Shown here: piece by piece, positions 1-14,363 of the stretch
Position numbering within the stretch: position 1 is the first letter of the stretch
Layout: every line of letters starts with the position of its first letter
NCBI GenBank assembly: GCA_963795855.1
Contig: CAWCIZ010000003.1
Span: 544,001 to 608,000, forward strand
DNA: 64,000 bases
Direction: 5' to 3'
From: Vulcanimicrobiota bacterium
GTDB lineage: Bacteria > Vulcanimicrobiota > Vulcanimicrobiia > Vulcanimicrobiales > Vulcanimicrobiaceae
Translations under genes and position numbers: made by a program
The notes under the pieces: generated by a model
The model's input: the letters and a program-made list of their open reading frames with translations, nothing else
Told to the model about the DNA's origin: nothing
The model's database searches: none

Positions 1-772
1 CGAGATCGCACAGCCGCAATTCTGCGCTGCCGCCGGGCGGAGCGACGAGCGTGAAATGCATCCAATCGCCCGGATAGTACATCGAGGGGCCGTTCGCGTA
101 AAAGCGATAGTCGAATTGCGACATGGCGGGCGCATCCGGCGGCGCTTGCAGCGACGTTTGAAAACTCCACGTCGCGGAAAATGCGTCGTTCGCGGTGGTA
201 CGCCCGGAAAAGGTCACCGTATGCGCACCGCGGCTCAATCCCATGCGCGGCATGTAGGTTATGGTGGAGCCGTCGAACGAAGCGGCGGCGGTCACGTCGG
301 TGCCGTCGATTGCGAGCATCACGTTTTGCGGCGTTGCACTCGCGCTGCCCAGCGACGCCGAAATCGTCGGATATGCGGAAGAAACGTTCGTCCCCGGTGC
401 CGGGTTCATATCGACGACACGAATTGCGGGAGTGGGGGTAACGATGCTCACGATACTCGCGCGCGCGTCGTAGCCGACGATTGCGCCCAGCGCTTGCGCG
501 ATGAAACGCAGCGGCACGTACGTTCGCATCGCGATGACTCGAGGCGGCGTATCGAGTCTTGTGTCGCGTCCGTCGACGACGGCGCTCTCGGATCCAATCG
601 TAAGACGCAGCGTGTGCGCCGCACTGCGCGCCACGATTACGCCGCGGCTGGGATCGTAGCGAATGCTTGCGCCCAAAGCGGAAAACGTCGCGCGCAGCGG
701 CAGAAGCACGCGCCCTTGCTCGACGATCGCAGTGACGTCGACGGGGCGGTCGTTCACCGTGACGGTAAGCAT
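1..772 (-). CDS. Copper amine oxidase N-terminal (stalk) domain surface protein, runs off window start
   Basis: Manual translation from ATG 772: MLTVTVNDRPVDVTAIVEQGRVLLPLRATFSALGASIRYD...RTYVPLRFIAQALGAIVGYD, the tandem 'vPLR...LGa.V.yD' stalk-domain repeats. Confidence 0.8.
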   Translation of the reverse strand, partial: MLTVTVNDRPVDVTAIVEQGRVLLPLRATFSALGASIRYDPSRGVIVARSAAHTLRLTIGSESAVVDGRDTRLDTPPRVIAMRTYVPLRFIAQALGAIVGYDARASIVSIVTPTPAIRVVDMNPAPGTNVSSAYPTISASLGSASATPQNVMLAIDGTDVTAAASFDGSTITYMPRMGLSRGAHTVTFSGRTTANDAFSATWSFQTSLQAPPDAPAMSQFDYRFYANGPSMYYPGDWMHFTLVAPPGGSAELRLCDL

Positions 773-774
773 GT

Positions 775-1916
775 TTACTCCGTTAACGGTTCGTAGACGC
801 GCCGCAGTTCCCCGGGTAAGCGCGTCACGATCTCGTAGTTAATCGTTTCCGCCCATTCGGCCCAATCGTCCGCACTCACCGCTTCCGCACCTTGCCTGCC
901 GATGAGCGTAACCGCGTCTCCGGGTTTGGCGTCGAGCGCGTTTTCGAGGTCGATCATCGTCATGTTCATGCAGACCCGGCCGACGATCGGGCAGCGGCGT
1001 CCGCCGACCAGAAACGCGGCGCGGTTCGAGAGCAGGCGCGGAATACCGTCGGCATAGCCGAGCGGTACGACGCCGATGCGCGTGCGCTTCGGGCGCATGG
1101 TAACTGCCGCCGTATCCGACCGGCGTGCCCGCCTCGACGGCACGCACTGCGGCGAGCGAGCTCTGCAGCGAAAGCGCGGGCTGCAAGTCGAATCGCGCGC
1201 CGTTCATTGCGATCCGGGTCTGCGGCGATGGCCATAAGCCGTACAGCGCAATCCCGATGCGCACCATGTCCAGGCGGGTTTGCGGCCACAGCATCGTCGC
1301 GGCCGACGCGGCGATGTGTTTGAGCGGGCGCGCGTTCTTTTGCGCGAGCGTTTCTTCAACGGAGTGCAGCGCGCGGTTGAATGCGTCGAGCTTGTCCGAG
1401 CGTGAACGGCGAATCGAGTTCTTCCGCTGCGGCCAAGTGCGAGAAGACGCCGGTGAGTGCGAGGTCCGGCAAACGCGCGTAATCTGAAACGGCATCCGCC
1501 GCTTCCGCGGGGTCGAGACCGAGGCGCGTGGTGCCGGTGTTGATCTTCACGTGCACCGGAACCGGAGCGCCGCGCCGCCGGCCCGACTCGGCAACCGCGC
1601 GCAGGTACGACCCGGTGTTCCACAACGCCAGTTCGACGTTGCGCGCGCATACTTCGTCCAGCTGCGCACTTTCGATCGGTCCCATGACGAAGATCGGACG
1701 CGTCACGCCGGCATCGCGCAATACCGCTGCTTCTTGGAGGGAGTACACGCACAAGCGCTCCGCATATGGTTCGACGGTTCGCGCAATTTCCACGATGCCG
1801 TGCCCGTAAGCGTTCGCTTTCACCACGAAGGCGGTTTTTGCGGGAGCCGCCAAATCGCGCAGCGCTCGCGCGTTGTGCGCGATCGCGGCTAAGGAAACGC
1901 AGATGCGCCCGATCAT
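775..1916 (-). CDS. alr: Alanine racemase (split over three frames; frameshifts near 1390 and 1100)
   Basis: VVKANAYGHG PLP-lysine motif, HVKINTG, GYGG, GYADG, GRVCMN and INYE motifs spread over ORFs 1356..1916, 839..1495 and 775..1143. Confidence 0.93.
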
Positions 1917-2380
1917 CGCGCGCGAGCGGCGAATGCGACGGGCACGCCGAAAAACACCGTCGCCGCAAGGACGCCGACGTATACCGAAAGCGCGTCCGGA
2001 ACCTTGAGCGCTTGCACGCTGAAGAGCACGAATTGCATGACGACGTACACGATTAAGCCGAAGATGAATCCGGAAATCGCCGGCTGCTTATCGATCGCGG
2101 GTTTGGTTTGCAAGATGTATGCATAGCCGATTCCCCACCCCGCCGCCGCAACGACGTTCATGACCAACCCGATCCACGCATACCCCGGCGACGCGAGCGC
2201 CGCTTTGCCAAAGGCAGTCGACGCGATGAATTGCCAAAGCGAGAGGATGCTCGCATGCGCGGGCAGTAGGCTTGCGAGGTAAAGAAAGACGTCGAAGCAG
2301 ATTGCGCCTGCGACGCCCGCGGCGATGCCGGACAGCACGATGCGGCGCCACTTCATGGAAACGGCCGTTGCCATACGCAT
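1913..2380 (-). CDS. Hypothetical integral membrane protein (about 4 TM helices)
   Basis: Hydrophobic 155-aa ORF whose stop overlaps the alr start (ATGA). Confidence 0.7.
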   Translation of the reverse strand: MRMATAVSMKWRRIVLSGIAAGVAGAICFDVFLYLASLLPAHASILSLWQFIASTAFGKAALASPGYAWIGLVMNVVAAAGWGIGYAYILQTKPAIDKQPAISGFIFGLIVYVVMQFVLFSVQALKVPDALSVYVGVLAATVFFGVPVAFAARAR

Positions 2381-2620
2381 TTACGCTTCAAACTTAATGG
2401 CCGCGTAACCCTCTGCTCGGACCCTTTATTGTACGATAGCAGCACGATGCGACGGAACTATGCAACCGCCGTTGCGGACGTTGTTATTTGGAGCAGTTCC
2501 TTACTGCTCGCGGCCGTTCTGCTCTTCGTAATGCTGAACGCCGGACGCCACTGGGTGCATTAAGCAAGCAACGCCACGGCTGTTAGGCGGACGCCGGTTT
2601 TGACGGGGTAAACACACAGC

Positions 2621-3547
2621 GTGCCCGGTCAGCAATTCGCGACCATCCTCGCGCGAACCGATCCGTTCGACGTCGCCCAGGGGGTGGAACGCCACATTCG
2701 CGCGTTGTCCGGCGAGCAGGTACGTCTGTTGATCGAGAACGCTCGGCCGCGCCTGAACGATTTTTACGAGGCGGAATTCGTTCCGCTGTTGGACGAGCGT
2801 AGCGATGCGCGTTTGAAAAGCGGCTTCGCGCAATCCCTCAAGAGTAATTTGCGCGCAATTCCGCTTTTCGGCCCGGCGTTTTGCCAGGGCGTTATCTCCG
2901 GCGTGCCGGCCGATCGCGCCATCGGCCTGGGTGAAGAGGAGCACCGCCTGCGGCCTGTGCGCCCCGTCGCGATCGCCGTTGTCGCCCTGGCGCTCGTCAT
3001 CGCGGGCGCAGCCGGGGAGCGGGTACTCAGCACAGCCAGATCCAACGCCCAGACGCCGGTCATCACCACGACGCCCGCGCCCTTGCAGTTGGAGACGCCG
3101 CGTCCGGTAGCTATCGCGACGGCCGCCGAAGAAACGCGTGCTCAGGCGACGTTGCCGCCGCGATCGCGTCTGCAAGCGTTGCAGACCGCCGTTCCGGTTA
3201 CGGCGCCGGCGTTGTTTTCCCCGACTCGACCGGCTGCGCCGGAAGCGCGCCCGCGGACCCCGGCGCCGGGAGCCGGCGTGAAAACGATCGTGGTAGGTCC
3301 TCCGACGAGCGCGCCCTCACCGCAGCCGAGCGACGTGGACGTGAGCGACATGCCGCAGGCATACACCGACGCGACGCCTTTGCCGAAAGAAACGGCGCCG
3401 CCGGCGCAAGCCGCCACGCCGCTAGGCGTCGTCACCCCTACTGCTTCTCCCAGGCGCCGCTCATGGTTGCATCGCACAATTATGCACTTGGACCCGTTCA
3501 AGCCTAATCCGCGCCCATCAACTTCCGCCCACGGACAGCCGCTATGA
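2621..3547 (+). CDS. Hypothetical membrane-anchored protein with Pro/Thr-rich C-terminal region
   Basis: 308-aa ORF with one TM segment (VAIAVVALALVIAGAAG); coupled to next gene by ATGA overlap. Confidence 0.65.
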   Translation: MPGQQFATILARTDPFDVAQGVERHIRALSGEQVRLLIENARPRLNDFYEAEFVPLLDERSDARLKSGFAQSLKSNLRAIPLFGPAFCQGVISGVPADRAIGLGEEEHRLRPVRPVAIAVVALALVIAGAAGERVLSTARSNAQTPVITTTPAPLQLETPRPVAIATAAEETRAQATLPPRSRLQALQTAVPVTAPALFSPTRPAAPEARPRTPAPGAGVKTIVVGPPTSAPSPQPSDVDVSDMPQAYTDATPLPKETAPPAQAATPLGVVTPTASPRRRSWLHRTIMHLDPFKPNPRPSTSAHGQPL

Positions 3548-4018
3548 AACTTTCGATCGTTGCGCCGCTTGCAGCCGCTGCCGCCCTGTCGCTGGCCGCA
3601 TGCAATTCCGGCAACAACCCCACCCCGACACCCACGCTTGGGCCTACGTGCCCACTGCCCGCCGGGGTTCAGACGCAGCTCGTGTATCCCGCGCCGGGCT
3701 CGACGGTGAGCGCCTCGACCGTGAGCGAAATCGCGATCGGGTCAACGGCCGCGCTCGATTCGAGCCGCTATCAGGTCGTCATCACGGACGCGCTCTTCCC
3801 ATATCCGAACTTCATCGCGCCCGGCGGCGCGCTGGCGGCGGCCTCACCGCCGTTCCCCTCGCCCAGCCAGACGCCGGCCTTCGGCAATCCGCAGTATCAG
3901 ACCACGACGCTCAGCAGCGTCTTTGCGGCAAACCAGGTCGTGACGGTCTACGTGAACGACACCAAATCGGGCGACAACTGCACACCGCTTCGAGCTGGGC
4001 GCGTTCACGACCCAGTAG
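3544..4018 (+). CDS. Putative lipoprotein (probable frameshift near 3988)
   Basis: Lipobox LSLAAC then NPTPTPT. After CTP an alternative frame gives FELGAFTTQ-TAG (4016-4018), a more plausible end than read-through into the IS to 4077. Confidence 0.6.
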
Positions 4019-4041
4019 CCGGCGAACAGCCTCCCCGGGGG

Positions 4042-4079
4042 CGTCCAAAGGGCATTATCCCCTCACGGCACGGGTAACC
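4042..4079. repeat. Target-site duplication copy 1 plus terminal inverted repeat
   Basis: CGTCCAAA followed by GGGCATTATCCC...GTAACC. Confidence 0.93.
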
Positions 4080-4276
4080 GAAATCTCGAAAATGCGCTAG
4101 TGTTATCAGATCAGAGCCTTAATCTTTTCGTTCATGTTCGCGGGGCATAAACAAAGCGTGAAGTTTCGGCTTTTACCAAACCGTGACCGTTGACATTACG
4201 CCCTAAAGCCGGATGATTAGATTCCGACGTATAGCATGGATGCCAAGGATGGCCCACTGGTAGTCTGGAGAGCAGC

Positions 4277-4471
4277 ATGGAGAATTGCCTTGTGTGTGGC
4301 AAGCCAGTTCGAGTCGAGTACCCTGGGTTGCCGCGCGCCCGTGCGCTTTGTGATGATGTTTGCAAGCGAATCTGGGCTGCTCAAACCGGCAAAGAATACA
4401 TCAGTATGCAAGAATACGCCAGCAGGGTGAACGCGGCGACGAAACCTATCCACCCTACTAGCGCGTCGTAA
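4277..4471 (+). CDS. Small Cys-rich (CxxC...CxxxC) putative zinc-binding passenger protein
   Basis: MENCLVCGKP...LCDDVCK; GGAGAG RBS upstream; TTGACA at 4190-4195 with a candidate -10 GATGAT at 4212-4217. Confidence 0.55.
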   Translation: MENCLVCGKPVRVEYPGLPRARALCDDVCKRIWAAQTGKEYISMQEYASRVNAATKPIHPTSAS

Positions 4472-4494
4472 GTCTACCTTAGCGGGTTATCGAT

Positions 4495-4764
4495 TTAGTA
4501 AACAGGCAGACTTAGCAGATTGTCAGCAACGGAATCATTCGGTAGTGTCCGTATGTACGGACGCCGGATGGTCCCGCAAACGACGACTACACGAGTCCGG
4601 CGATCGCCGTCCACCGTGTAGAGTTCGTTTCCGCCGTTGATAAACGCGATGATGGCCGATAGAGTCATCGTTAGCGTTACGCCGAAGACGGTTCGACATT
4701 CCACGTCGGTGATTATGGAGTGGGGACCCTCTAGGTACACTCCTATTGCTTCCAGAGATTGCAT
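4495..4764 (-). CDS. DUF3892-like passenger protein (89 aa)
   Basis: AAGGAGG RBS (4780-4774) before ATG 4764; C-terminal PYIRTLPNDSVADNLLSLP resembles the DUF3892 signature. Confidence 0.7.
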   Translation of the reverse strand: MQSLEAIGVYLEGPHSIITDVECRTVFGVTLTMTLSAIIAFINGGNELYTVDGDRRTRVVVVCGTIRRPYIRTLPNDSVADNLLSLPVY

Positions 4765-4795
4765 TGAGCAAGACCTCCTTGTGACGTGTCGCACC

Positions 4796-4919
4796 CGGCG
4801 CTTGGGATGCGGGCGGAGTGCCCGCGCCAAGTCACCAGCGTTCCCACCGAGGCAGGAGCGCTGTCGGGGTACCGGCTTCCCCCGATTTGCCGTCCGCTGA
4901 AGCACTCATCACCTGCGGA
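4796..4919. ncRNA. Structured non-coding segment (multi-hairpin junction)
   Basis: CGGCG/TGCCG closes three hairpins (CTTGG..GCGGGC/GCCCGC..CCAAG; CAGCGTTCC/GGAGCGCTG; TCGGGG/CCCCGA), followed by TCCGC/GCGGA. Confidence 0.45.
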
Positions 4920-5000
4920 AATCTCATAGTACCTCTGGACTGGTGCGGTCGGTAGCCCATTCTCCGAAGCCTTAGCTTTCGCTAAACGAAGCGGGCCCTT

Positions 5001-5029
5001 TTGCGTCACCGTCCGGTTCGTGATAATGT
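5001..5029 (+). promoter_or_regulatory. Putative sigma70 promoter for cloverleaf RNA A
   Basis: TTGCGT (5001-5006), 17 bp, TAATGT (5024-5029) with TG extension; predicted start about 5036. Confidence 0.5.
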
Positions 5030-5035
5030 TGGAGC

Positions 5036-5127
5036 GGAGCCGGGGAATCTTATTTCATGCGCGGTACCAGCGCGCACCCATGGTTTCTAAGGCCAGGTCG
5101 GACACTTGTCACGATTCGGCGGCTCCA
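5036..5127 (+). ncRNA. Cloverleaf/tRNA-like small RNA A (non-canonical)
   Basis: Perfect 7-bp GGAGCCG/CGGCTCC plus unpaired A; inner GAATC/GATTC; arms TGCGCG-7nt-CGCGCA, TGGT-TTCTAAG-GCCA and GAC-ACTT-GTC. Confidence 0.55.
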
Positions 5128-5136
5128 AAATGAATC

Positions 5137-5167
5137 GGGCTCATCTTTTAAGATGGGCCTGTTCTTT
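5137..5167 (+). terminator. Intrinsic terminator-like hairpin after RNA A
   Basis: GGGCTCATCT-TTTA-AGATGGGCCT then GTTCTTT; its G-U pairs are valid only on the + strand. Confidence 0.55.
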
Positions 5168-5194
5168 ACGCGGCATTCTCCGTTTCGGTTGCGG

Positions 5195-5626
5195 CTATTG
5201 TGGCGGGCGGAACGTCGCCGATCCACCGATACGTTCGAGGGGCAATTTTTTGACCATGTGGCGTTGGGAGAGGTTGTAGCACGAGACATCAGTCGCTGAA
5301 AGCGGACTGTCAGCCCGCGTTACTGCGTTCATTGCCTGAGCGCGCTTCCATAATTCCTTTACGTGCATCGGGGTGCCGTGCGCTTCGTACAGAATGCGCG
5401 CGATGGCGCTCATTAATGAAGGCCCGCCCTTCGACCGTGGCGGAACGACATTCGGCGGTTCGATGCCTAACGGTAGCGGCTCGCCATTACTTGCATTCAG
5501 CGTGAGCCAGCGTTCGTCGGCGCGTAGCATGTCGAGCAGTACTTCTCTCTGCCTATCAAGGTTGGCGAGCGTTTCTCGAACTTGTGCTAGCCGATCGCGG
5601 ACTGCTTGCTCGGTTAACATGGTCAT
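5195..5626 (-). CDS. Passenger protein: N-terminal coiled coil plus C-terminal winged-helix-like DNA-binding domain
   Basis: 143 aa; heptad-like VRDRLAQVRETLANLDRQREVL; SLMSAIARILYEAHGTPMHVKELWKRA wHTH-like; AAGGGA RBS. Confidence 0.65.
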   Translation of the reverse strand: MTMLTEQAVRDRLAQVRETLANLDRQREVLLDMLRADERWLTLNASNGEPLPLGIEPPNVVPPRSKGGPSLMSAIARILYEAHGTPMHVKELWKRAQAMNAVTRADSPLSATDVSCYNLSQRHMVKKLPLERIGGSATFRPPQ

Positions 5627-5648
5627 TTCGGTTCCCTTTTGCTATAAT
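5620..5648 (+). promoter_or_regulatory. Putative sigma70 promoter for cloverleaf RNA B
   Basis: TGGTCA (5620-5625), 17 bp, perfect TATAAT (5643-5648) with TG extension; predicted start about 5655. Confidence 0.65.
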
Positions 5649-5653
5649 GGCAA

Positions 5654-5722
5654 TGGCGACGCCGGGGCCTCGATCCCCGGAGTTACGGGATTTCAGTCCC
5701 GCTTCTGTCCGAACCGCCGCCA
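5654..5722. ncRNA. Cloverleaf/tRNA-like small RNA B (non-canonical; strand ambiguous)
   Basis: Minus strand: GGCGGCG G TTC-GGACA-GAA GCGGGA-CTGAAA-TCCCGT AACT CCGGGG-ATCGAGG-CCCCGG CGTCGCC A. The promoter and terminator signals are on the + strand. Confidence 0.55.
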
Positions 5723-5724
5723 TC

Positions 5725-5770
5725 GGGGGCCCTGGGTCTGTCACCAAACTTCCCCAGGCCCCCTTACTTT
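5725..5770 (+). terminator. Terminator-like hairpin after RNA B
   Basis: GGGGG(C)CCTGGG, 16-nt loop, CCCAGGCCCCC, followed by TTACTTT. Confidence 0.5.
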
Positions 5771-5935
5771 ATCATAACGAGTCTGCTCGCATCATAGGGG
5801 GTAGGCCCTATGTAGGACCTAATAGCTCCATAAAGTTTAGGTAAAAGAGGCGTATGGACAAAACTAAGGGCGTGGCACCATCCGGCGAACGCCCATATGA
5901 ACGGGTTGACTTTCTACGCGACTTGTCTAAGGCGT

Positions 5936-6943
5936 CTAAGAAACTAGCTTCCGGGGATGATGCTTCGCTGGAAAGTGACGCGCAAGAAACTCCTGGGAAA
6001 TCTGACCGCAAAGAATCGTGAACATCGGCTTGCCATCCTCGCGATGGTTGTAGCGGAAGCAATACTCGTCTAAGTAACCCTGAATGTGCTTGCGCGAGAT
6101 ATGCTTGTACACGCCGCGCACACTGCCACGGAAATGCGACCAGAAGCCCTCGATCGTGTTCGTCGAAACGCCGTCCGCATCGACGTAAACGCCGTCACTG
6201 TGCTTCACTAGTCTGTGAACGTAACCCCAATGCTTGAGGGGAACGTATTGCGGGGCTTCGTCTGTATGAATTTCACTACCGGGCTTGACTCGCTGCTTGA
6301 TGGGCTGCGTCAACTCGAAGAATCCGCGCCGTTCTACGGGATAAGCCGCAATACGGCCACCACGCTCGACTAAACCCGCGATTACGATCTTGCCGGTTTC
6401 GGGCCCAACAACTTGCGGAAAACGCGCACGAGCCCGACGGTTCATGCGATTAACCTTCGGCCCGAAATACGTTTCATCGGCTTCTACTATCTTGTCGCCG
6501 CCGAGATCGTGAACGTCCTCTAGTAGCATCTTGCGAATGAGGTTGAACATGCGCCACGCAGTTTTATACGTAACGCCGGTTTCGCGCATGAGCTGCATGG
6601 CGGAAATGCCACAACGGGTCGCGCTCATCAAGTAGATCGCGTGGAACCACGTTTTGAGGCTTGTCTTGGACTTGTGGAAGATCGTGCCGGCCGTCGGATG
6701 CGTATGCGTTCCGCAGTAATCGCAGGTCCAGACCTTGGGGCGATTCTTGAGCTGGTGATGGGGGCGGACCTCGCCGCATTGCAAACAGTGGATATACAGT
6801 GCGTCCGCGTCCTCGGGGGCCCATAGCGGCTGCGGATAGAGAGACTTGACCAACCAGCGCATACACGCGATATCGTCCGGAAACTCGGATTCGAACTGCT
6901 TGAACGTGTACTTGCTGTTCTTGGGTAGGTTTAGGCTCGGCAT
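5936..6943 (-). CDS. IS1595-family DDE transposase
   Basis: N-terminal Zn ribbon (CLQC...WTCDYC), TIFHKSK, VEADETYFG, IHTDEAPQY, TNTIEGFWS, YLDEYCFRYN; GGAGG RBS before ATG 6943. Confidence 0.96.
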   Translation of the reverse strand: MPSLNLPKNSKYTFKQFESEFPDDIACMRWLVKSLYPQPLWAPEDADALYIHCLQCGEVRPHHQLKNRPKVWTCDYCGTHTHPTAGTIFHKSKTSLKTWFHAIYLMSATRCGISAMQLMRETGVTYKTAWRMFNLIRKMLLEDVHDLGGDKIVEADETYFGPKVNRMNRRARARFPQVVGPETGKIVIAGLVERGGRIAAYPVERRGFFELTQPIKQRVKPGSEIHTDEAPQYVPLKHWGYVHRLVKHSDGVYVDADGVSTNTIEGFWSHFRGSVRGVYKHISRKHIQGYLDEYCFRYNHREDGKPMFTILCGQISQEFLARHFPAKHHPRKLVS

Positions 6944-6973
6944 AGGGCTCGCCTCCACCTACAGCGTATCATG

Positions 6974-7011
6974 GGTTACACGTGCGGTCAAGGGATAATG
7001 ACCCGTCCAAA
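6974..7011. repeat. Terminal inverted repeat plus target-site duplication copy 2
   Basis: GGTTACACGTGCGGTCAAGGGATAATGACC followed by CGTCCAAA. Confidence 0.93.
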
Positions 7012-7015
7012 GAAC

Positions 7016-7044
7016 TTGCAGTCTCCACCGGAGTCTGCTAAGAT
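7016..7044 (+). promoter_or_regulatory. groESL sigma70 promoter
   Basis: TTGCAG, 17 bp, TAAGAT with TG extension. Confidence 0.75.
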
Positions 7045-7051
7045 TCCATCG

Positions 7052-7078
7052 CTGGCACTCTATTGCTGAGAGTGCCAA
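7052..7078. promoter_or_regulatory. CIRCE operator (HrcA site)
   Basis: CTGGCACTC-N9-GAGTGCCAA vs consensus TTAGCACTC-N9-GAGTGCTAA, upstream of groES. Confidence 0.92.
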
Positions 7079-7105
7079 TCCCTGACAAATTTTTTGGAGG
7101 TTTAC

Positions 7106-7411
7106 GTGAATCTCAAGCCTTTGGGCGATCGCGTGGTCGTAGAGCACGTCGAGCAGCAAGACAAGAGCGCCGGCGGCGTGTTCCTCCCGGACACCGCCAA
7201 AGAGAAGCCGCAGGAAGGCCTCGTCCGCGCGGTCGGTTCCGGCCGCACCCTCGACAACGGCACCAAGCTCTCGATGGACGTGAAGGTCGGCGATCGCATC
7301 ATCTACTCGAAGTATTCGGGCTCTGAAGTCAAGGTCGACGGCACCGAGTACCTCATCATTTCTGAAAAAGACGTTCTGGCCATCGTCGACAAAGTTCCGG
7401 CCGGCGTTTAA
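7106..7411 (+). CDS. groES: Co-chaperonin GroES
   Basis: [10 protein letters not shown]...[19 protein letters not shown] before GTG 7106. Confidence 0.98.
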
Positions 7412-7423
7412 GGAGTTTTGTAA

Positions 7424-9085
<1,662 letters not shown>

Positions 9086-9130
9086 GCCTCGGCGAAACAT
9101 CGTACCGAGCAACGTCCCGTACATACGAAG

Positions 9131-9163
9131 AAAACGCCTCGCGGATTGCCGCGGGGCGTTTTT
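9131..9163 (+). terminator. Intrinsic terminator of groESL
   Basis: AAAACGCCTCGCGG-ATTG-CCGCGGGGCGTTTTT. Confidence 0.85.
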
Positions 9164-9239
9164 ACACTATGGGCCGTTGGAACGAAGGGCCGTCGGCACG
9201 AACGCAATAACCCGTTCGTACTCGTCAAAGGAGGTTTGG

Positions 9240-9725
9240 ATGCGACGGATTTTCCTGATGGCCATAGCTGCCGCAATTCTGCTCGGCGGGTGTTCCACCA
9301 GCAAGCGCGTGTATTCGGGCAACGGCACCACGGTCACCACGGATTCGAATCAGAAAACGGTCACCGTGCGCAGCAGCGAGGGCACCATGACGATGGGCAA
9401 GGGCGTCGTCGACGCAGCGAAACTCGGCGTACCGGTTTACGCCGGCGCGACGCAGGATGAAGGCGCGCTTTCGGTCACGGGCGAGCAGGGCTCCGCGCAA
9501 ATGACCGCGTTCACCACGCCCGATGCATTCGACAAAGTGTATGCGTTCTACAAGAACAGCATGCCCGCTGGTTCGGAAAAGATGAAAGTCGAGCAAGGCG
9601 ATTCGTCGATCGCGGAATTCGTGACGGGAGATGAGAAGCCGGGCGCCGTGCGCACGCTCGTGATGATCACGAAGAAAGGCGATAAGACTTCGATTGTGAT
9701 CACCAAAGGCACCAACCGGCCGTAA
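9240..9725 (+). CDS. Putative lipoprotein
   Basis: AAGGAGG RBS; MRRIFLMAIAAAILLGGC lipobox; LGVPVYAGA motif. Confidence 0.8.
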   Translation: MRRIFLMAIAAAILLGGCSTSKRVYSGNGTTVTTDSNQKTVTVRSSEGTMTMGKGVVDAAKLGVPVYAGATQDEGALSVTGEQGSAQMTAFTTPDAFDKVYAFYKNSMPAGSEKMKVEQGDSSIAEFVTGDEKPGAVRTLVMITKKGDKTSIVITKGTNRP

Positions 9726-9838
9726 CCAGGCGTCCGCCGGCTCGCATATGGCGTCGGCCACCTGCATTCGAGTTTATGTCAGTGTACTGACCGGGCAAGA
9801 ACGTAGCCGACCACTACTTTTTGTGAGGCAAGCAATCC

Positions 9839-10363
9839 ATGAAGTATTCGAACGTTGTCTGTACCGCAGGTGCGCTGGGCTTGGCGTTTCTGCTCGCCGC
9901 ATGCGGCGGCGGAGGCGGAAACAACAACCAGAACGCCGGCAACAATGCGGGGCAGAACGGCGGGAACAAAGGCTCGCAGCAAGTCAAGCAGATGAATCCA
10001 ATGCACGTCGCTCACAACGAAATCGCCGGGCACAGCCTGCAGATCAACATGGGACAGCAGAACAATTCCGGACAAGCCGGTAATGCGAGCGTCACCGACG
10101 TCAACGGTGGGGTGAGCGTCGCCATCCATATCAAGTCCGAGCCGAAAGGCGCGACCGAACCGGCGCATATCCACCAGGGAACGTGCACGAAACTCAACCC
10201 CGCTCCGTGGAAACCGCTCAACCCCGTCGTGAACGGTCAGTCGATGACGCATTTGGCGGGCGTAAGCGTCGCACAGATCAAGAAGGGCAAATACGCCATC
10301 AACGTCCACAAGAGCGCTACGGATTTGAAGACGTACGTTTCCTGCGGCGATCTCACCCTATAA
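9839..10363 (+). CDS. Lipoprotein with small CHRD/Cu,Zn-SOD-like beta domain
   Basis: Lipobox LLAAC; EPAHIHQGTC, YAINVHKS and YVSCGDL motifs. Confidence 0.7.
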   Translation: MKYSNVVCTAGALGLAFLLAACGGGGGNNNQNAGNNAGQNGGNKGSQQVKQMNPMHVAHNEIAGHSLQINMGQQNNSGQAGNASVTDVNGGVSVAIHIKSEPKGATEPAHIHQGTCTKLNPAPWKPLNPVVNGQSMTHLAGVSVAQIKKGKYAINVHKSATDLKTYVSCGDLTL

Positions 10364-10801
10364 GTGAGTCGGATCCCCGTTTTCATAGTGGCCGCCGCAT
10401 TGCTCGCCGCGTGCGGCGGCCGTCCCGTCAGCCAAATCAACGTTCTGCATGAAGCGCACAACGCCATGAGCCAAGATACGCTCACGGTTAATATGGGTGC
10501 GCTCAAGCACTCCGAGCAATGGGGCAGCGCGAGCATGGGTGACGAGAGGCACGGCATGGACGTCATCGTGCATCTTGATAACGAGCCTGCTGGTGCCAAA
10601 GAACCCGCCTACATCGCGATTGGCAACTGCACGCCGCCCTCCAGCAAAGCATGGCGAACGCTGGCTCCGGTCACCGGCGGTAAGTCAGCCAGCCACGTGG
10701 GCGGCGCGGACATCGGCGCGATAAAAAAGGGCCGGTATTCGATCGTCGTGGACGACCCGCGCGCGCGGACGGCCGTTTCCTGCGGCAACTTCCAAATTTA
10801 G
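10364..10801 (+). CDS. Lipoprotein paralog of preceding gene lacking its histidines
   Basis: Lipobox LLAAC; EPAYIAIGNC, IKKGRYSIVV and AVSCGNF align with the upstream gene. Confidence 0.7.
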   Translation: MSRIPVFIVAAALLAACGGRPVSQINVLHEAHNAMSQDTLTVNMGALKHSEQWGSASMGDERHGMDVIVHLDNEPAGAKEPAYIAIGNCTPPSSKAWRTLAPVTGGKSASHVGGADIGAIKKGRYSIVVDDPRARTAVSCGNFQI

Positions 10802-10840
10802 CGCCGCGAGGGTATACTGTGAGCGAGGAGGCGAACGCTC

Positions 10841-11263
10841 ATGGCCGACCGGCATGCAGTGGCGGCGCTTTCGATCTTGATGTTTCTGCTCGCGAGCGCG
10901 ACCGCGCTACCTGCGCGGGCCGCGGGCAACACCAGCGATCTTCTGGCCGCAGTAAAAAACGTTTCGAGCGAGTCCGACAAGTTTCGCTCAATGATGGCCA
11001 ATCTCAACGAAAGTCAAATCCACGTCGTCGACGCGCAAAGCATCATGTCCGCGAGCGCGCAGAGCGCTTATAAATTTGCGATTTCCAAGAACGCGTCGAG
11101 CATTGCGGATTTACGCGATACGTTGAATCACACGACCGTCACGGGAAGTGACGGGGTGCTGGTAACGTTGCGAAAAGTGTTGTTGCGTCAAAACGTGGCG
11201 GTAGATCGCGTTGTCGGCGTGTACGTCGGCGGAGACGGCCAAGTCACGCTGTTCTACCAGTAG
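10841..11263 (+). CDS. Secreted hypothetical protein
   Basis: GAGGAGG RBS, TATACT -10 upstream, signal peptide ending ARA. Confidence 0.7.
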   Translation: MADRHAVAALSILMFLLASATALPARAAGNTSDLLAAVKNVSSESDKFRSMMANLNESQIHVVDAQSIMSASAQSAYKFAISKNASSIADLRDTLNHTTVTGSDGVLVTLRKVLLRQNVAVDRVVGVYVGGDGQVTLFYQ

Positions 11264-11264
11264 A

Positions 11265-11744
11265 CTACCAGTACGACCATTGCCCGCGACGGTCGCGTTC
11301 CGCGCCGTCACGCGTTTGCGAAAGAAGCGTAGACGTCAATGCGCTCACGTGCGCGGGTGGTTGCAAAGCGTGCATGATGCCGTAACCTTCCGCCAAGAGA
11401 CGGTTTGCGCGCTGCTGCTGGGAGGCCTGATGTGCCAGTTCCGCCGCTACGACCAAAGCATTGGCGGCGCGCCACCGATCGTTGAAACGCTGCGCGGTCG
11501 ACCCTTCCGTGTTCGCGCAATGCAGCGATATTCGCGCGGATTGTTCGGCCGCACGCGAAGCATCGGCATACCGATGCGAGGAAATCGAGTCCACGTTGCG
11601 CGCGATGGCTTGCACTGCGCGTTCGCCGCACGGCGTGTTGAACGTGGCTGCAGTACGCTTTTGGTCTACGTGCGCCGCGCAGCCGCTGACTCCAACGAGT
11701 GCAGCCAGCACGGCAATACGCAGCGCGCTAAAGGTGATAGTCAT
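11265..11744 (-). CDS. Putative lipoprotein
   Basis: MTITFSALRIAVLAALVGVSGC lipobox, the C-terminal part of track ORF 11265..12998. Confidence 0.6.
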   Translation of the reverse strand: MTITFSALRIAVLAALVGVSGCAAHVDQKRTAATFNTPCGERAVQAIARNVDSISSHRYADASRAAEQSARISLHCANTEGSTAQRFNDRWRAANALVVAAELAHQASQQQRANRLLAEGYGIMHALQPPAHVSALTSTLLSQTRDGAERDRRGQWSYW

Positions 11745-11773
11745 GGCGGTATAGTCTCCCCGTGGGGCCGTCC

Positions 11774-13117
11774 TTAAGGATTCCCGGGCGCTTGCTCGGA
11801 TAAACCTTGAGCGCCCTTCGCCAAGAAGACATAGTAAATCGGAATTGCCGACAGGAGCGCTCCCAGCGACCACGCCGCGCCCTGCGGCGACGAAATATAG
11901 GTCGTAAGAACTACGCCGACCGTGATAAGGAAAAAAAAGGCGGTTGTGAAGGGGTGCAGCGGCGTGCAGAACTGCGGTGCCTTTCGCCCGGCGCGCCGAT
12001 CCCGCGCGCGAAAGATAAACAGCGCAATCGCGGCTAGCGCGAAAAAGACGTAATCGATGCCGATCACGTAATTCAAAATTTGTGCGTAGCCTTTCAAAAA
12101 CGTGATCGCGATTGCGAACGCGCCTTGCAGCGCGATTGCAATTACGGGAACGCGCGTTGCCGGATGCAGCCACGCGATCTGCCGAAAGAAGAGACCGTCT
12201 TGCGCCATTGCATGATACACGCGCGGCGACGTGAGAATTTGATTGCTCAAGAATCCGAGCGTCGAGAGCGCGATCAGCGCGGCAATGATCTGCGCGCCGC
12301 GCGCGCCCATGAACGCGCGAAGCACTTCGGACGCCGGCGCGTCGGTGCGCGTGAGGCCCGCCGGGCCGAGCACGCGCAGGCACACGACGTTGACCAGGAC
12401 GTACAATACAATGACGCCGCCGACGCCCCACATCATGCCGAGCGGAAGCGTTCTCGCCGGTTTTTTCAGTTCGGCAGTCATGAAACTCGACGTCTGCCAT
12501 CCGCTGTACGCAAAAAGTACTGCGATCATCGAGACGGCCATCGCGCCGAACAGACTGAGTGAAGAACCGATGCTCGGCGCTGCCGCAGTCGAGGCCGCCG
12601 GATGGGCGAACAGGCCGACCGCGATAAGCCCCGCGATGGCCGCGATTTTGAGCACCATGAAAAAATTTTGCACGTTGCTGCCTTGGCGCACGCCTAGGCA
12701 GTTGACAAGCGTAAACACGGCCAGCACTGCGAACGCAAGCAATTGCGGGCTTACGTTCAGTCCCGTGAGCGGTTCGAAATACCCCGCGAACGTCAACGCC
12801 GCCGCCGCCATCCCGCCGCTCTGCGAAACGAGCAGGAGCGTCCAACCGTACATGAATGCGATCGCCGGATGAAACGCTTCTCGCATGTACGCGTACAAAC
12901 CGCCGTCGCTGGGGCGGCGCGCCGCGAGTTCCGCGAAGAGAAACGCGCCGAGCAGCGCGACGACACCTCCCGCAACCCAAACGCTCATGATCGCCCACCC
13001 GGCATGCACGCTCTGAGCGACCACGGACGGATTTCGAAAAATGCCCGAGCCGATGATGCCGCCCATGACGATGAGGCCGGCATCGAAAACGCCCAAGCGG
13101 CGCGCGAGCTTCGCCAT
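11774..13117 (-). CDS. APC-family amino acid permease
   Basis: GGIIGSGIF, FAEL and FAYSGW motifs; about 12 TM segments. Confidence 0.92.
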   Translation of the reverse strand: MAKLARRLGVFDAGLIVMGGIIGSGIFRNPSVVAQSVHAGWAIMSVWVAGGVVALLGAFLFAELAARRPSDGGLYAYMREAFHPAIAFMYGWTLLLVSQSGGMAAAALTFAGYFEPLTGLNVSPQLLAFAVLAVFTLVNCLGVRQGSNVQNFFMVLKIAAIAGLIAVGLFAHPAASTAAAPSIGSSLSLFGAMAVSMIAVLFAYSGWQTSSFMTAELKKPARTLPLGMMWGVGGVIVLYVLVNVVCLRVLGPAGLTRTDAPASEVLRAFMGARGAQIIAALIALSTLGFLSNQILTSPRVYHAMAQDGLFFRQIAWLHPATRVPVIAIALQGAFAIAITFLKGYAQILNYVIGIDYVFFALAAIALFIFRARDRRAGRKAPQFCTPLHPFTTAFFFLITVGVVLTTYISSPQGAAWSLGALLSAIPIYYVFLAKGAQGLSEQAPGNP

Positions 13118-13427
13118 ACCGAGGACTCAGTCTCGGCAGCCGTCGATTCCTGTGGCAGCCAACCGATTGGGCGGGGCGGCAAGCGGGTTACGAAAACGGC
13201 ATCTCAGCTCAGAACCGAGAGGATTCGGATCAACCACGCGCATGCTCCGGACCGTTTCGCACTAGCCTTTCGCCGCATCGTTCGTCCCCGCAGCGTGCAT
13301 TTGCCGGAAAGGCGAATAGCTTCTACGGCGACGTCTTGCACGTGTCGATAAACAACGTCAAAGTCTACGACCCCAAAGCGCATCAAAAACAGCCGCACCT
13401 CACAGCAGATTCTGCACTAGAGAATCG

Positions 13428-14363
13428 CTAAGCCGGTTCAAAGCGCCGGCGCATGCCGTATAGGGTGCGCAGCAGTACATCCAGCACCGTCGCGTCGGGC
13501 TGCGCATGCCCGACGCGCGGGTGCGCGCCGACGAAAAACAAGTGGCCGTACGGGAATCCGAGCGATGCGAGCTCGTGCATGTAGCCGTCGATGTCGCGTG
13601 CGCGCCTGAAGGCGTACTCGCGATCGAAATGTTCGGAGTGCTCTTCGCCGCGCAGCAGTTCGCGAGAAATCGCTACCGCCTGTTCCGTATTAGCCGCTTT
13701 CAGGCGATCGCGCAGGATCGCATCGAAACGCTCGAACGCCGCGAAGAAGACGCGCCAGGCTTGGTGCACGCCGGCAACTCGATCGCAGCCATCTCGAAGG
13801 TACTCGCGGTGAAGGGCCGCGATTTCACCGCCATACGCGGTGTTTCGCGCTTCCGGTATCACGCGCGCCGCATCGGCAAGCGCGCGTCCGAACGCGCGCG
13901 CGTGCGCAAGTGTTTCGCGTCCGTTCAATTCCTGTACGCGCTGCGTTTTTGCAACGAATGCGGCGTAGAACGCATAGTCCTTGAGCGCGCGGCACCAAAG
14001 TTCGACGGGCTCATCATTCGCTTGATAGGGCTCGAGCACGTCGCGTCCCGCGACCAGGGTGCGCCGCTCGTACGGCGTGTAGCTCATCACGCGAAGCGAC
14101 CATGCGGGCAAGATGAACGGCTCCTGGAGAAAGAGCCGGTGATAGCGCTCGGGTAACCGCTGAAACGGCGAGAAAAAGAACCGGTTGTCCAACCCGATGT
14201 GCGTCGTGACCACGAGAAGGCGGATCTCGGATAGTTCGGGATGCTCGGGAACGGCTACCGTGTGTACGCCGATGGCGCGGTTTTTTACCAGCGCGGCGTA
14301 GCGCGCGACGGCTTCATCGTAAAGCGCCGGCTGGCTCGGTTGCGGGATGTCGACGACGTTCAT
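13428..14363 (-). CDS. Hypothetical protein
   Basis: 311-aa ORF with GGAG RBS and host-like composition. Confidence 0.7.
   Translation of the reverse strand: MNVVDIPQPSQPALYDEAVARYAALVKNRAIGVHTVAVPEHPELSEIRLLVVTTHIGLDNRFFFSPFQRLPERYHRLFLQEPFILPAWSLRVMSYTPYERRTLVAGRDVLEPYQANDEPVELWCRALKDYAFYAAFVAKTQRVQELNGRETLAHARAFGRALADAARVIPEARNTAYGGEIAALHREYLRDGCDRVAGVHQAWRVFFAAFERFDAILRDRLKAANTEQAVAISRELLRGEEHSEHFDREYAFRRARDIDGYMHELASLGFPYGHLFFVGAHPRVGHAQPDATVLDVLLRTLYGMRRRFEPA

Follow-up and report, generated by a model that had tools for sequence, protein, structure and literature searches.

Why does a transposon carry a tRNA-like fold directly in front of a protein-coding gene, and which of the two DNA strands does the fold serve? 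This question is raised by a 64,000-nucleotide stretch of a Vulcanimicrobiota genome (the window, to which all coordinates refer unless a relative with an L number is named). An IS1595-family transposon in this window carries the gene of a winged-helix protein (wHTH) with a structured region on either side, RNA B before it and RNA A after it. An initial reading of the letters alone, called the sequence-only reading below, had regarded both regions as cloverleaf RNAs of the plus strand and had suggested that a sense/antisense pair controls or processes the transcript of the transposase and wHTH genes. Here, we followed up these proposals by folding, model searches and comparison with related loci.

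Results

A bounded IS1595 transposon with passenger genes

The coordinates of all features are listed in Table 1. The element belongs to the IS1595 family, as its DDE_Tnp_IS1595 transposase is accompanied by terminal inverted repeats and an 8-bp target duplication. On the minus strand, the transposase is followed by the leader with RNA B, the wHTH gene, RNA A and the DUF3892 gene. The transposases nearest by identity (57% and 54%) were found in Candidatus Eremiobacteraeota and Candidatus Cybelea records, so that the host probably belongs to this phylum.

Several further observations concern the element and its surroundings. Relatives have small ORFs which, judged by eye, resemble the 55-aa ORF that runs opposite the end of the transposase gene. 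In the interval from RNA A to the DUF3892 gene, the minus strand carries a series of stable hairpins (4775–4990) that has no match in Rfam and may be a third regulatory leader. On the plus strand, a 64-aa ORF with two cysteine pairs (4277–4471) has a promoter-like site of its own at 4190–4217, and Pfam gives only weak zinc-ribbon hints for it. The transposon lies upstream of a gene pair that we take to be groES-groEL-like. It is adjoined by an inverted repeat within 7004–7090, just upstream of this pair, which resembles a CIRCE box; the transposon may thus influence chaperone control.

Table 1. Positions of the features discussed (window coordinates; those of the last six rows, on tRNAs that seem to be misfits, refer to the relative named)
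Feature	Position	Strand	Remark
IS1595-family transposon with passenger region	4050–7003		2,954 bp; single copy in genome
Terminal inverted repeats, 30 bp	4050–4079 and 6974–7003
Target duplication, 8 bp	4042–4049 and 7004–7011
Transposase, 340 aa	5936–6958	−	Pfam DDE_Tnp_IS1595, E 1.8e-32
55-aa ORF antisense to transposase 3′ end	5854–6021	+	no Pfam match
Candidate sense −10	5766–5776	−	TATGAT 5771–5776 or TG-extended TAAAGT 5766–5771; no good −35
Hairpin 1, first structure of sense leader	5725–5763		T-rich tail on + at 5764–5772
RNA B, tRNA-like cloverleaf, 68 nt	5654–5721	−	wHTH leader
RNA B acceptor, 7 bp	5715–5721 paired with 5655–5661	−
RNA B D-arm, 3 bp	5703–5713	−	GG in D-loop
RNA B anticodon arm	5685–5702	−	6-nt loop CUGAAA at 5691–5696
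RNA B T-arm, 6 bp	5662–5680	−	loop AUCGAGG (holds UCGA)
RNA B discriminator A	5654	−	no encoded CCA
Antisense promoter	5620–5648	+	−35 TGGTCA 5620–5625, TG 5640–5641, −10 TATAAT 5643–5648
Predicted cis-antisense RNA, about 116 nt	5655–5770	+	from promoter and terminator polarity
wHTH gene, 143-aa protein	5195–5626	−	long N-terminal helix (6–45) and winged helix
Terminator-like hairpin between wHTH and RNA A	5136–5161	+	would end antisense RNA over RNA A
RNA A, putative decayed allo-tRNA-like RNA	5035–5126	−	tRNA-Sec model: E 0.13 at 19.3 bits (cut-off 47)
Candidate −10 (GATAAT) for antisense RNA over RNA A	5022–5027	+	score 8, 7 nt from 3′ end
DUF3892 passenger gene, further downstream	4495–4764	−	Pfam PF13031, E 3.3e-7
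Misfit tRNA, L013	4699–4771	−
Misfit tRNA, L014	3514–3595	+
Misfit tRNA, L020	5524–5685	+
Misfit tRNA, L049	6026–6100	+
Misfit tRNA, L067	8366–8440	−
Misfit tRNA, L046	9613–9708	−

The wHTH protein family

In the model of the 143-aa protein (pLDDT 87), a long helix is combined with a winged helix. Its match to HARE-HTH (PF05066) reaches 20.3 bits, below the Pfam gathering score of 25.9. The same domain matches 17 of 31 family members at E ≤ 0.01 (best 1.5e-7), and NCBIfam matches none of the 31. Foldseek with the model returned nothing at E ≤ 0.001, only generic winged helices and no specific solved structure. The window gene is predicted to encode a coiled-coil/HARE-HTH-like, DNA-binding protein. 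Its family is unnamed and comprises 120 representatives at 50% clustering (E ≤ 0.001). Scans with the single protein or a close alignment found no homologues. Profile searches detected the family in 10 of 401 genomes of the phylum, 15 of 348 of the family and 6 of 301 in a set centred on a Chloroflexota-type record, and collection scans added 5 and 15 loci. From 42 loci collected, 33 were kept for counts, and kin among these are not independent of one another. The nine dropped loci are duplicates (L110, L135), fragments or loci without upstream DNA (L140–L143) and weak matches (L124, L126, L128). Many wHTH loci adjoin IS1595, IS1-like or DDE_1 transposases, and PIN, GNAT, Panacea and AbiE genes occur within four of them, including a PIN gene near wHTH in L094 and a GNAT gene in L098.

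These loci also bear on the proposed control of the transposase, which now appears unlikely: the leader is downstream of the transposase gene, the position of the transposase relative to wHTH varies among relatives, and the wHTH gene occurs in none of 80 close transposase relatives.

RNA B folds as a minus-strand, tRNA-like cloverleaf

Between the end of RNA B and the first wHTH ATG lie 27 nt, in agreement with the location directly 5′ of it given by the sequence-only reading. That reading had drawn a plus-strand cloverleaf and had remarked that the minus strand folds better, into a compact 68-nt cloverleaf of tRNA arm order. Folding bore out the latter remark. The minus-strand fold has an energy of −33.6 kcal/mol and a z-score of −2.36, with 2 of 200 shuffles equally good, and its closing-stem pairs have probabilities of 0.97–1.0. 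The plus-strand cloverleaf, on the other hand, is not the minimum-energy fold; its z-score is −0.75 (36 of 200 shuffles equally good) and its pair probabilities are 0–0.69 in the closing stem and 0.32–0.46 in the mini-arm. The likeness of RNA A and RNA B on this strand was also not confirmed: by sequence it is at chance level, with 289 of 500 shuffles scoring as well, and the matched 6-bp arms are different things on the minus strand, a T-arm in RNA B and a long variable arm in RNA A. The stop-complementary triplets are not features in themselves: reverse-complemented, UCA gives the GAA anticodon loop and CUA the UAG one. Moreover, the centred plus-strand triplet is UUC and not the UGA-complementary UCA in the paired 7-nt loops of L094, L096, L098 and L127.

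To what extent RNA B is a tRNA was assessed with tRNA detection programs. It is the sole relaxed ARAGORN call (-ps90) in the transposon, and shuffled passenger regions give such a call in 3 of 200 cases; default ARAGORN does not call it. The Rfam tRNA model (RF00005) gave nothing at E ≤ 10 in 201 nt around RNA B, which is absent from the 47 matches of this model in the genome. Rfam scans of positions 1–14000 and of RNA B alone assigned no family, the weakest hints being mascRNA (E 4.3) and DUF3800-XI (E 0.82). A loose cloverleaf scanner, applied to the passenger regions of 80 IS1595 loci (130,637 bases), reported many low-score folds; the window fold had the top score (25), followed by a real tRNA (24). 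A DNA search of 401 genomes of the phylum with positions 5600–5800 returned 10 short matches, apparently by chance.

RNA B resembles canonical tRNA-Phe (RF00005) in its arm order, 7-bp acceptor, U33-GAA and A73 as well as in the GG of the D-loop and the UCGA of the T-loop. It is unlike tRNA-Phe in its 6-bp T-stem, 3-bp D-arm and lack of an Rfam match; a canonical tRNA has a 7/5 acceptor/T branch and a 7-nt anticodon loop, whereas RNA B has a 7/6 branch and a 6-nt loop. With its 13-bp acceptor/T branch, 6-nt loop and shrunken D-arm, RNA B is unlikely to work as a tRNA in translation. The host genome has a tRNA-Phe of its own. The short loop can be accounted for without an indel error, since a 6-nt loop, GUGAAA, forms in the relative L100 as well.

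The cloverleaf is conserved in wHTH leaders of the host phylum

In 200-nt wHTH leaders, relaxed ARAGORN (-ps85) found a tRNA-like fold on the sense strand in 8 of 33 loci, compared to 1.7% of shuffles, and on the antisense strand in 3 of 33. GA(A) is read in four of the eight calls, L096 is a fifth case at -ps80, and L127, for which ARAGORN took another register, was assigned by hand. The six GAA leaders (window, L094, L096, L098, L100 and L127) represent six genera in two families and all come from the 13 kept loci of the host phylum. Every one of them has the invariant UGAA, that is U33 plus the Phe anticodon GAA, and the T-loop A, at 56–70% RNA identity and 18–36% protein identity. With stem registers picked to maximise pairing, the 102 stem positions on the wHTH strand comprise 90 Watson-Crick pairs, 8 G-U, 1 A-C and 3 other mismatches. 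The excess of G-U (8) over A-C (1) indicates a structure selected on the wHTH strand. Covariation among the six modules is higher than in 500 of 500 shuffles, with an alignment fitted to the model and a control that leans accordingly. The energy is lower on the wHTH strand in all nine leader cloverleaves folded; by z-score, the plus/antisense strand is favoured in L094 and L100. With these data, we are highly confident that the minus strand carries a genuine, conserved module.

The bodies of the modules are more variable than the loop. The host tRNA-Phe ranks 1, 5, 7, 26, 27 and 32 of 48 in similarity to the six GAA modules, and acceptor length and discriminator vary among them. As the bodies are not especially Phe-like and these two traits vary, a translating tRNA-Phe is argued against. 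Other leader loops read GUC, AUC or CUA (L101, L105, L123). A GAA cloverleaf is lacking in 27 of 33 leaders, many of which hold a hairpin only, so that the antisense layout described below works without it. In L123, the wHTH homolog is directly preceded by a tRNA-like gene (1313–1382, plus strand) that encodes CCA and has an amber-reading CUA loop, and it is followed by a Clp-protease-like gene.

The R1 RNA model, built from the six GAA modules, was run over 81, 37 and 81 sources plus 151 genomes. It refound the training set only, together with two coding false matches (L148, L149), and is therefore no independent test. Four pattern scans of genome and viral collections, covering at least 321 loci, gave no new GAA member among the matches listed; L411 is the L100 sequence again. 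L404, from a rumen Clostridiales, has near 1460–1560 (plus strand) an RNA of several hairpins, one loop of which reads CUGAAAG; its 3′ end is similar, but the order is not that of a cloverleaf. As judged from sequence, the GAA module is known from six members.

A conserved antisense promoter faces the leader

The TG-TATAAT promoter of the sequence-only reading, with a start near 5655, was confirmed. It has a 17-nt spacing and the motif TG-c-TATAAT, matches the consensus at 10 of 12 positions and is one of three such sites in 4000–7100. On the opposite strand, it overlaps the wHTH start codons and ribosome-binding site. The terminator-like hairpin expected after RNA B is likewise present as hairpin 1, which folds on the plus strand at z −3.98, although a simple terminator scan did not call it. 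Hairpin 1 is predicted to be the terminator of an antisense RNA. This RNA would be the full complement of RNA B and hairpin 1 and would leave the ribosome-binding site uncovered.

To judge the promoter, 100 nt around the wHTH start were scored in the 33 loci. On the antisense strand, a score of at least 9 was reached in 21 loci and of at least 10 in 16, compared to 3 and 0 on the sense strand of the same 100 nt. Host genes gave 5 and 2 of 271, and shuffles 6% and 1%. By these counts, the family has conserved an antisense promoter ahead of the wHTH start. A site no more than 32 nt from the 3′ end occurs in four of the six GAA modules and in none of 48 host tRNA calls. A score of at least 9 by the 3′ end was found for 3 of 10 downstream tRNAs and for none of 7 odd tRNAs in wHTH-free IS1595 loci. 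The site is weak in L127 (5–6) and L098 (8). Among the first leader hairpins of the 33 loci, 17 have an A-rich 5′ side and 2 a T-rich 3′ side, which is the polarity of a terminator on the antisense strand; an A-rich start after a promoter can imitate this polarity. Divergent promoters ahead of regulator genes are generally common, and it is the nearby terminator that makes this one resemble the promoter of a small antisense RNA. We consider it likely, from these signals, that the antisense RNA is made. The sense/antisense pair of the sequence-only reading therefore stands as far as the conserved promoter (21/33) and the terminator polarity are concerned, but not as a plus-strand twin of RNA A.

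Further upstream, the sense strand has a candidate promoter that scores 9 in the window; a score of at least 9 was found in 22 of 33 relatives and 16% of shuffles. It is also possible that the sense transcript arises by read-through from the transposase. Predicted access to the wHTH ribosome-binding site is nearly unchanged on cutting (0.61 to 0.70).

Odd tRNAs occupy the slot after the wHTH gene in several loci

RNA A has a 9/3-like geometry on the minus strand, with two C-C mismatches in the acceptor, a long variable arm, a CUUAGAA loop (anticodon UAG), G73 and a broken T-arm. Directly after wHTH, L094, L113 and L127 carry a tRNA with a UAG anticodon, G73 and a long variable arm, and the second tRNA of L113 folds as a clean 9/3 form. 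The tRNAs of these three loci are predicted to have a serine-type body with a leucine anticodon; the serine, leucine and arginine body labels of the odd tRNAs are our reading by identity rules. The one in L094 (521–649, minus strand) has a variable arm of about 58 nt and overlaps the last wHTH codons. A −10-like hexamer lies 3–7 nt past the 3′ end of all four UAG RNAs including RNA A (scores 11, 7, 6 and 8), and the antisense −10 of RNA A is weaker than the site at RNA B. Other odd tRNAs are found in the wHTH loci L099, L129, L130, L131 and L134.

With RNA A included, a UAG tRNA is present in three of five readable GAA loci; L098 ends at the contig edge. Since L096 and L100 have no downstream tRNA, the GAA module needs no toxic tRNA partner. 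In L127, the antisense of the leader cloverleaf (1878–1946) pairs with the UAG tRNA (1270–1368) better than 200 of 200 shuffles, and one antisense RNA might hit both there. In the window and in L094, neither RNA B nor its antisense pairs with the downstream tRNA above chance level.

In nine loci (L095, L097, L102, L109, L111, L112, L132, L136 and L138), no tRNA was seen after the wHTH stop. There, the slot is often filled by a hairpin, a very strong Shine-Dalgarno sequence, an ORF of 19–25 codons and a terminator. Rfam gave none of its families at gathering level for it, and it looks like a family of small peptide toxins or ribosome-sequestering RNAs. Separately, wHTH-free IS1595 relatives carry tRNA genes whose anticodon seemingly does not fit the body (Table 1). 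Those of L013, L014 and L067 lie within elements bounded by target duplications; L020 and L049 are less well bounded. L013 and L014 are the two closest transposase relatives.

Discussion

A proposed tRNA-derived leader under antisense control

The reading that we place first, with confidence a little short of even, is that a tRNA-derived leader module and a cis-antisense RNA repress a mobile, probably toxic cassette. It builds on what was compared between loci, namely the location and strand of the module, its UGAA loop, the antisense promoter, the terminator polarity and the downstream tRNAs with serine body and leucine anticodon; transcription, duplex formation, processing and toxicity we infer as follows. 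The sense transcript would run through hairpin 1, RNA B, wHTH and RNA A. The antisense RNA would pair with it first through U-turn loops, its UUC meeting the GAA of the anticodon loop, and then as a full duplex, by which the transcript would be stopped or destroyed. U-turn loops are known to kiss, and pairs of GAA and UUC loops to be stable. Once the antisense RNA is exhausted, by loss of the element or by phage shut-off of host transcription, host RNase P and 3′ nucleases would cut at the tRNA-like modules and set free the wHTH message and a tRNA that places serine at leucine codons. RNA B would thus be a domesticated tRNA, serving as an RNase P processing handle and as the U-turn target of the antisense RNA. 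The cassette of the window copy may be partly disarmed, because RNA A appears decayed.

A more specific form of this proposal is a poison-antidote or abortive-infection cassette carried by insertion sequences of soil bacteria, in which the serine-at-leucine tRNA would be the poison, the cis-antisense RNA the antidote and RNA B the switch, its GAA loop acting as kissing site or as a sensor of the phenylalanine machinery. We regard this form as conceivable and on the doubtful side. If true, a tRNA gene has been recycled as the riboregulator of a killer tRNA.

Alternative explanations

It is unlikely, yet well worth considering, that the antisense RNA only tunes the wHTH regulator and that there is no poison. 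The cloverleaf would then be a signal for stability or for processing by RNase P, from which a small regulatory RNA arises as in phage P1 C4. C4 is a three-arm leader RNA excised by RNase P, and Acinetobacter C4-like RNAs have antisense partners (PMC5320573). The family-wide antisense layout with optional tRNA cargo, exemplified by L096 and L100 without a downstream tRNA, would fit. Against this, the Rfam C4 model does not match and the loop lacks a conserved nearby target, the best complements being scattered and 5–7 nt long; furthermore, the invariant anticodon triplet and the recurring UAG tRNAs would be left unexplained. In another explanation, RNA B is an autonomous decoy or mimic of tRNA-Phe which binds PheRS, ribosomes at UUC/UUU or a tRNA-attacking toxin, and acts as a second toxin or as protection. 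U33-GAA is invariant in six of six modules though the bodies drift, a plain U-turn needs only U-N-R so that GAA is conserved beyond the kissing requirement, and the PIN (L094) and GNAT (L098) genes lie nearby. The bodies are not Phe-like by the ranks given above, acceptor stems and discriminators vary, and other leaders carry GUC, AUC and CUA, which makes a Phe mimic distinctly improbable.

RNA B could also be a passenger tRNA gene in decay, or else a normal tRNA-Phe altered by an assembly indel, that has no present role and is merely crossed by the antisense promoter of the leader. It is below Rfam tRNA detection, RNA A of the same element is visibly decayed and odd tRNAs are frequent in IS1595 relatives. 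Decay would not, however, keep the stems paired by double-sided changes, nor UGAA invariant at such low protein identity, nor the position fixed, and one-base repair of a supposed indel still leaves the 6-bp T-stem and 3-bp D-arm; we judge this explanation very unlikely. The least probable in our view, to the point of being hardly credible, is the original form of the sequence-only reading, a functional plus-strand cloverleaf that is the twin of RNA A and has a UGA-reading loop. A strong promoter and terminator do lie on this strand, UUCA is conserved there as the complement of UGAA, and the plus-strand z-scores of L094 and L100 are the better ones. Such an RNA would have to hold eight A-C mismatches over the six modules, though, with an arm order the reverse of a tRNA, and the window z-score and pair probabilities, the chance-level A/B similarity and the centred UUC of four paired loops all speak against it.

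Significance and comparison with known systems

For irregular and mistranslating tRNAs from soil metagenomes, membership in transposons or toxin-antitoxin systems was guessed in 2017, and how cells survive them was left open (PMC5389517, in the text accessible). The locus and its relatives offer a concrete genetic unit with a bounded transposon, one protein family, fixed RNA slots and a conserved antisense promoter, and because such a unit is at hand, the survival question is testable by a few point mutations. If our preferred reading of an antisense-repressed toxic cassette is true, tRNAs join the known toxin classes, and tRNA bodies are reused as antisense-controlled switches. The modules are also natural parts for genetic-code engineering.

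The closest known RNAs are the allo-tRNAs. According to PMC5389517, these have an 8/4 or 9/3 branch, a long variable arm and G73 or U73; those of serine identity with leucine anticodons insert serine and cause growth arrest and death of E. coli on induction. Irregular tRNA-like genes of soil bacteria neighbour transposon and toxin-antitoxin genes (PMC5389517; review PMC7609411). Forms with a 9/3 branch, leucine anticodon and G73 match the second tRNA of L113 and, probably in a decayed state, RNA A. RNA B differs from them in its short variable loop, 7/6 branch and A73 and falls outside the definition; the only GAA-anticodon entry found in the part of the PMC5389517 table at hand is a long allo-tRNA unlike RNA B. 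Within the accessible portions, the supplement text of that paper has no promoter, antisense or IS1595, and its main text no HTH. The C4 RNA of phages P1/P7 is likewise a three-arm, GG-starting leader RNA that is cut out by RNase P (PMC5320573), but RNA B carries tRNA hallmarks (U33-GAA, T-loop), lies in an insertion sequence and has no Rfam C4 match. A C4-type target of the middle loop, sought in six loci, was not found beyond scattered 5–7-nt matches.

A literature search, largely without subscription papers, gave no description of the combined unit. There are precedents for its pieces, irregular tRNAs in mobile DNA and antisense-controlled leaders, and RNA B itself fails the tests for a tRNA, an allo-tRNA and C4.

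Antisense-controlled pairs and leaders are exemplified by hok/sok and CopA/CopT, and CreTA is a toxin system made of RNA only. Like hok/sok and CopA/CopT, the leader described here would combine a short cis-antisense RNA with a structured U-turn leader on a mobile element, and at the level of sequence signals it has the cis-antisense promoter and terminator overlapping the leader that characterise an antisense-controlled toxin-antitoxin module. It differs from type I toxin-antitoxin systems in that the antisense RNA would leave the ribosome-binding site uncovered, that the target loop is the anticodon arm of a tRNA and that the candidate toxin is a mistranslating tRNA instead of a membrane peptide.
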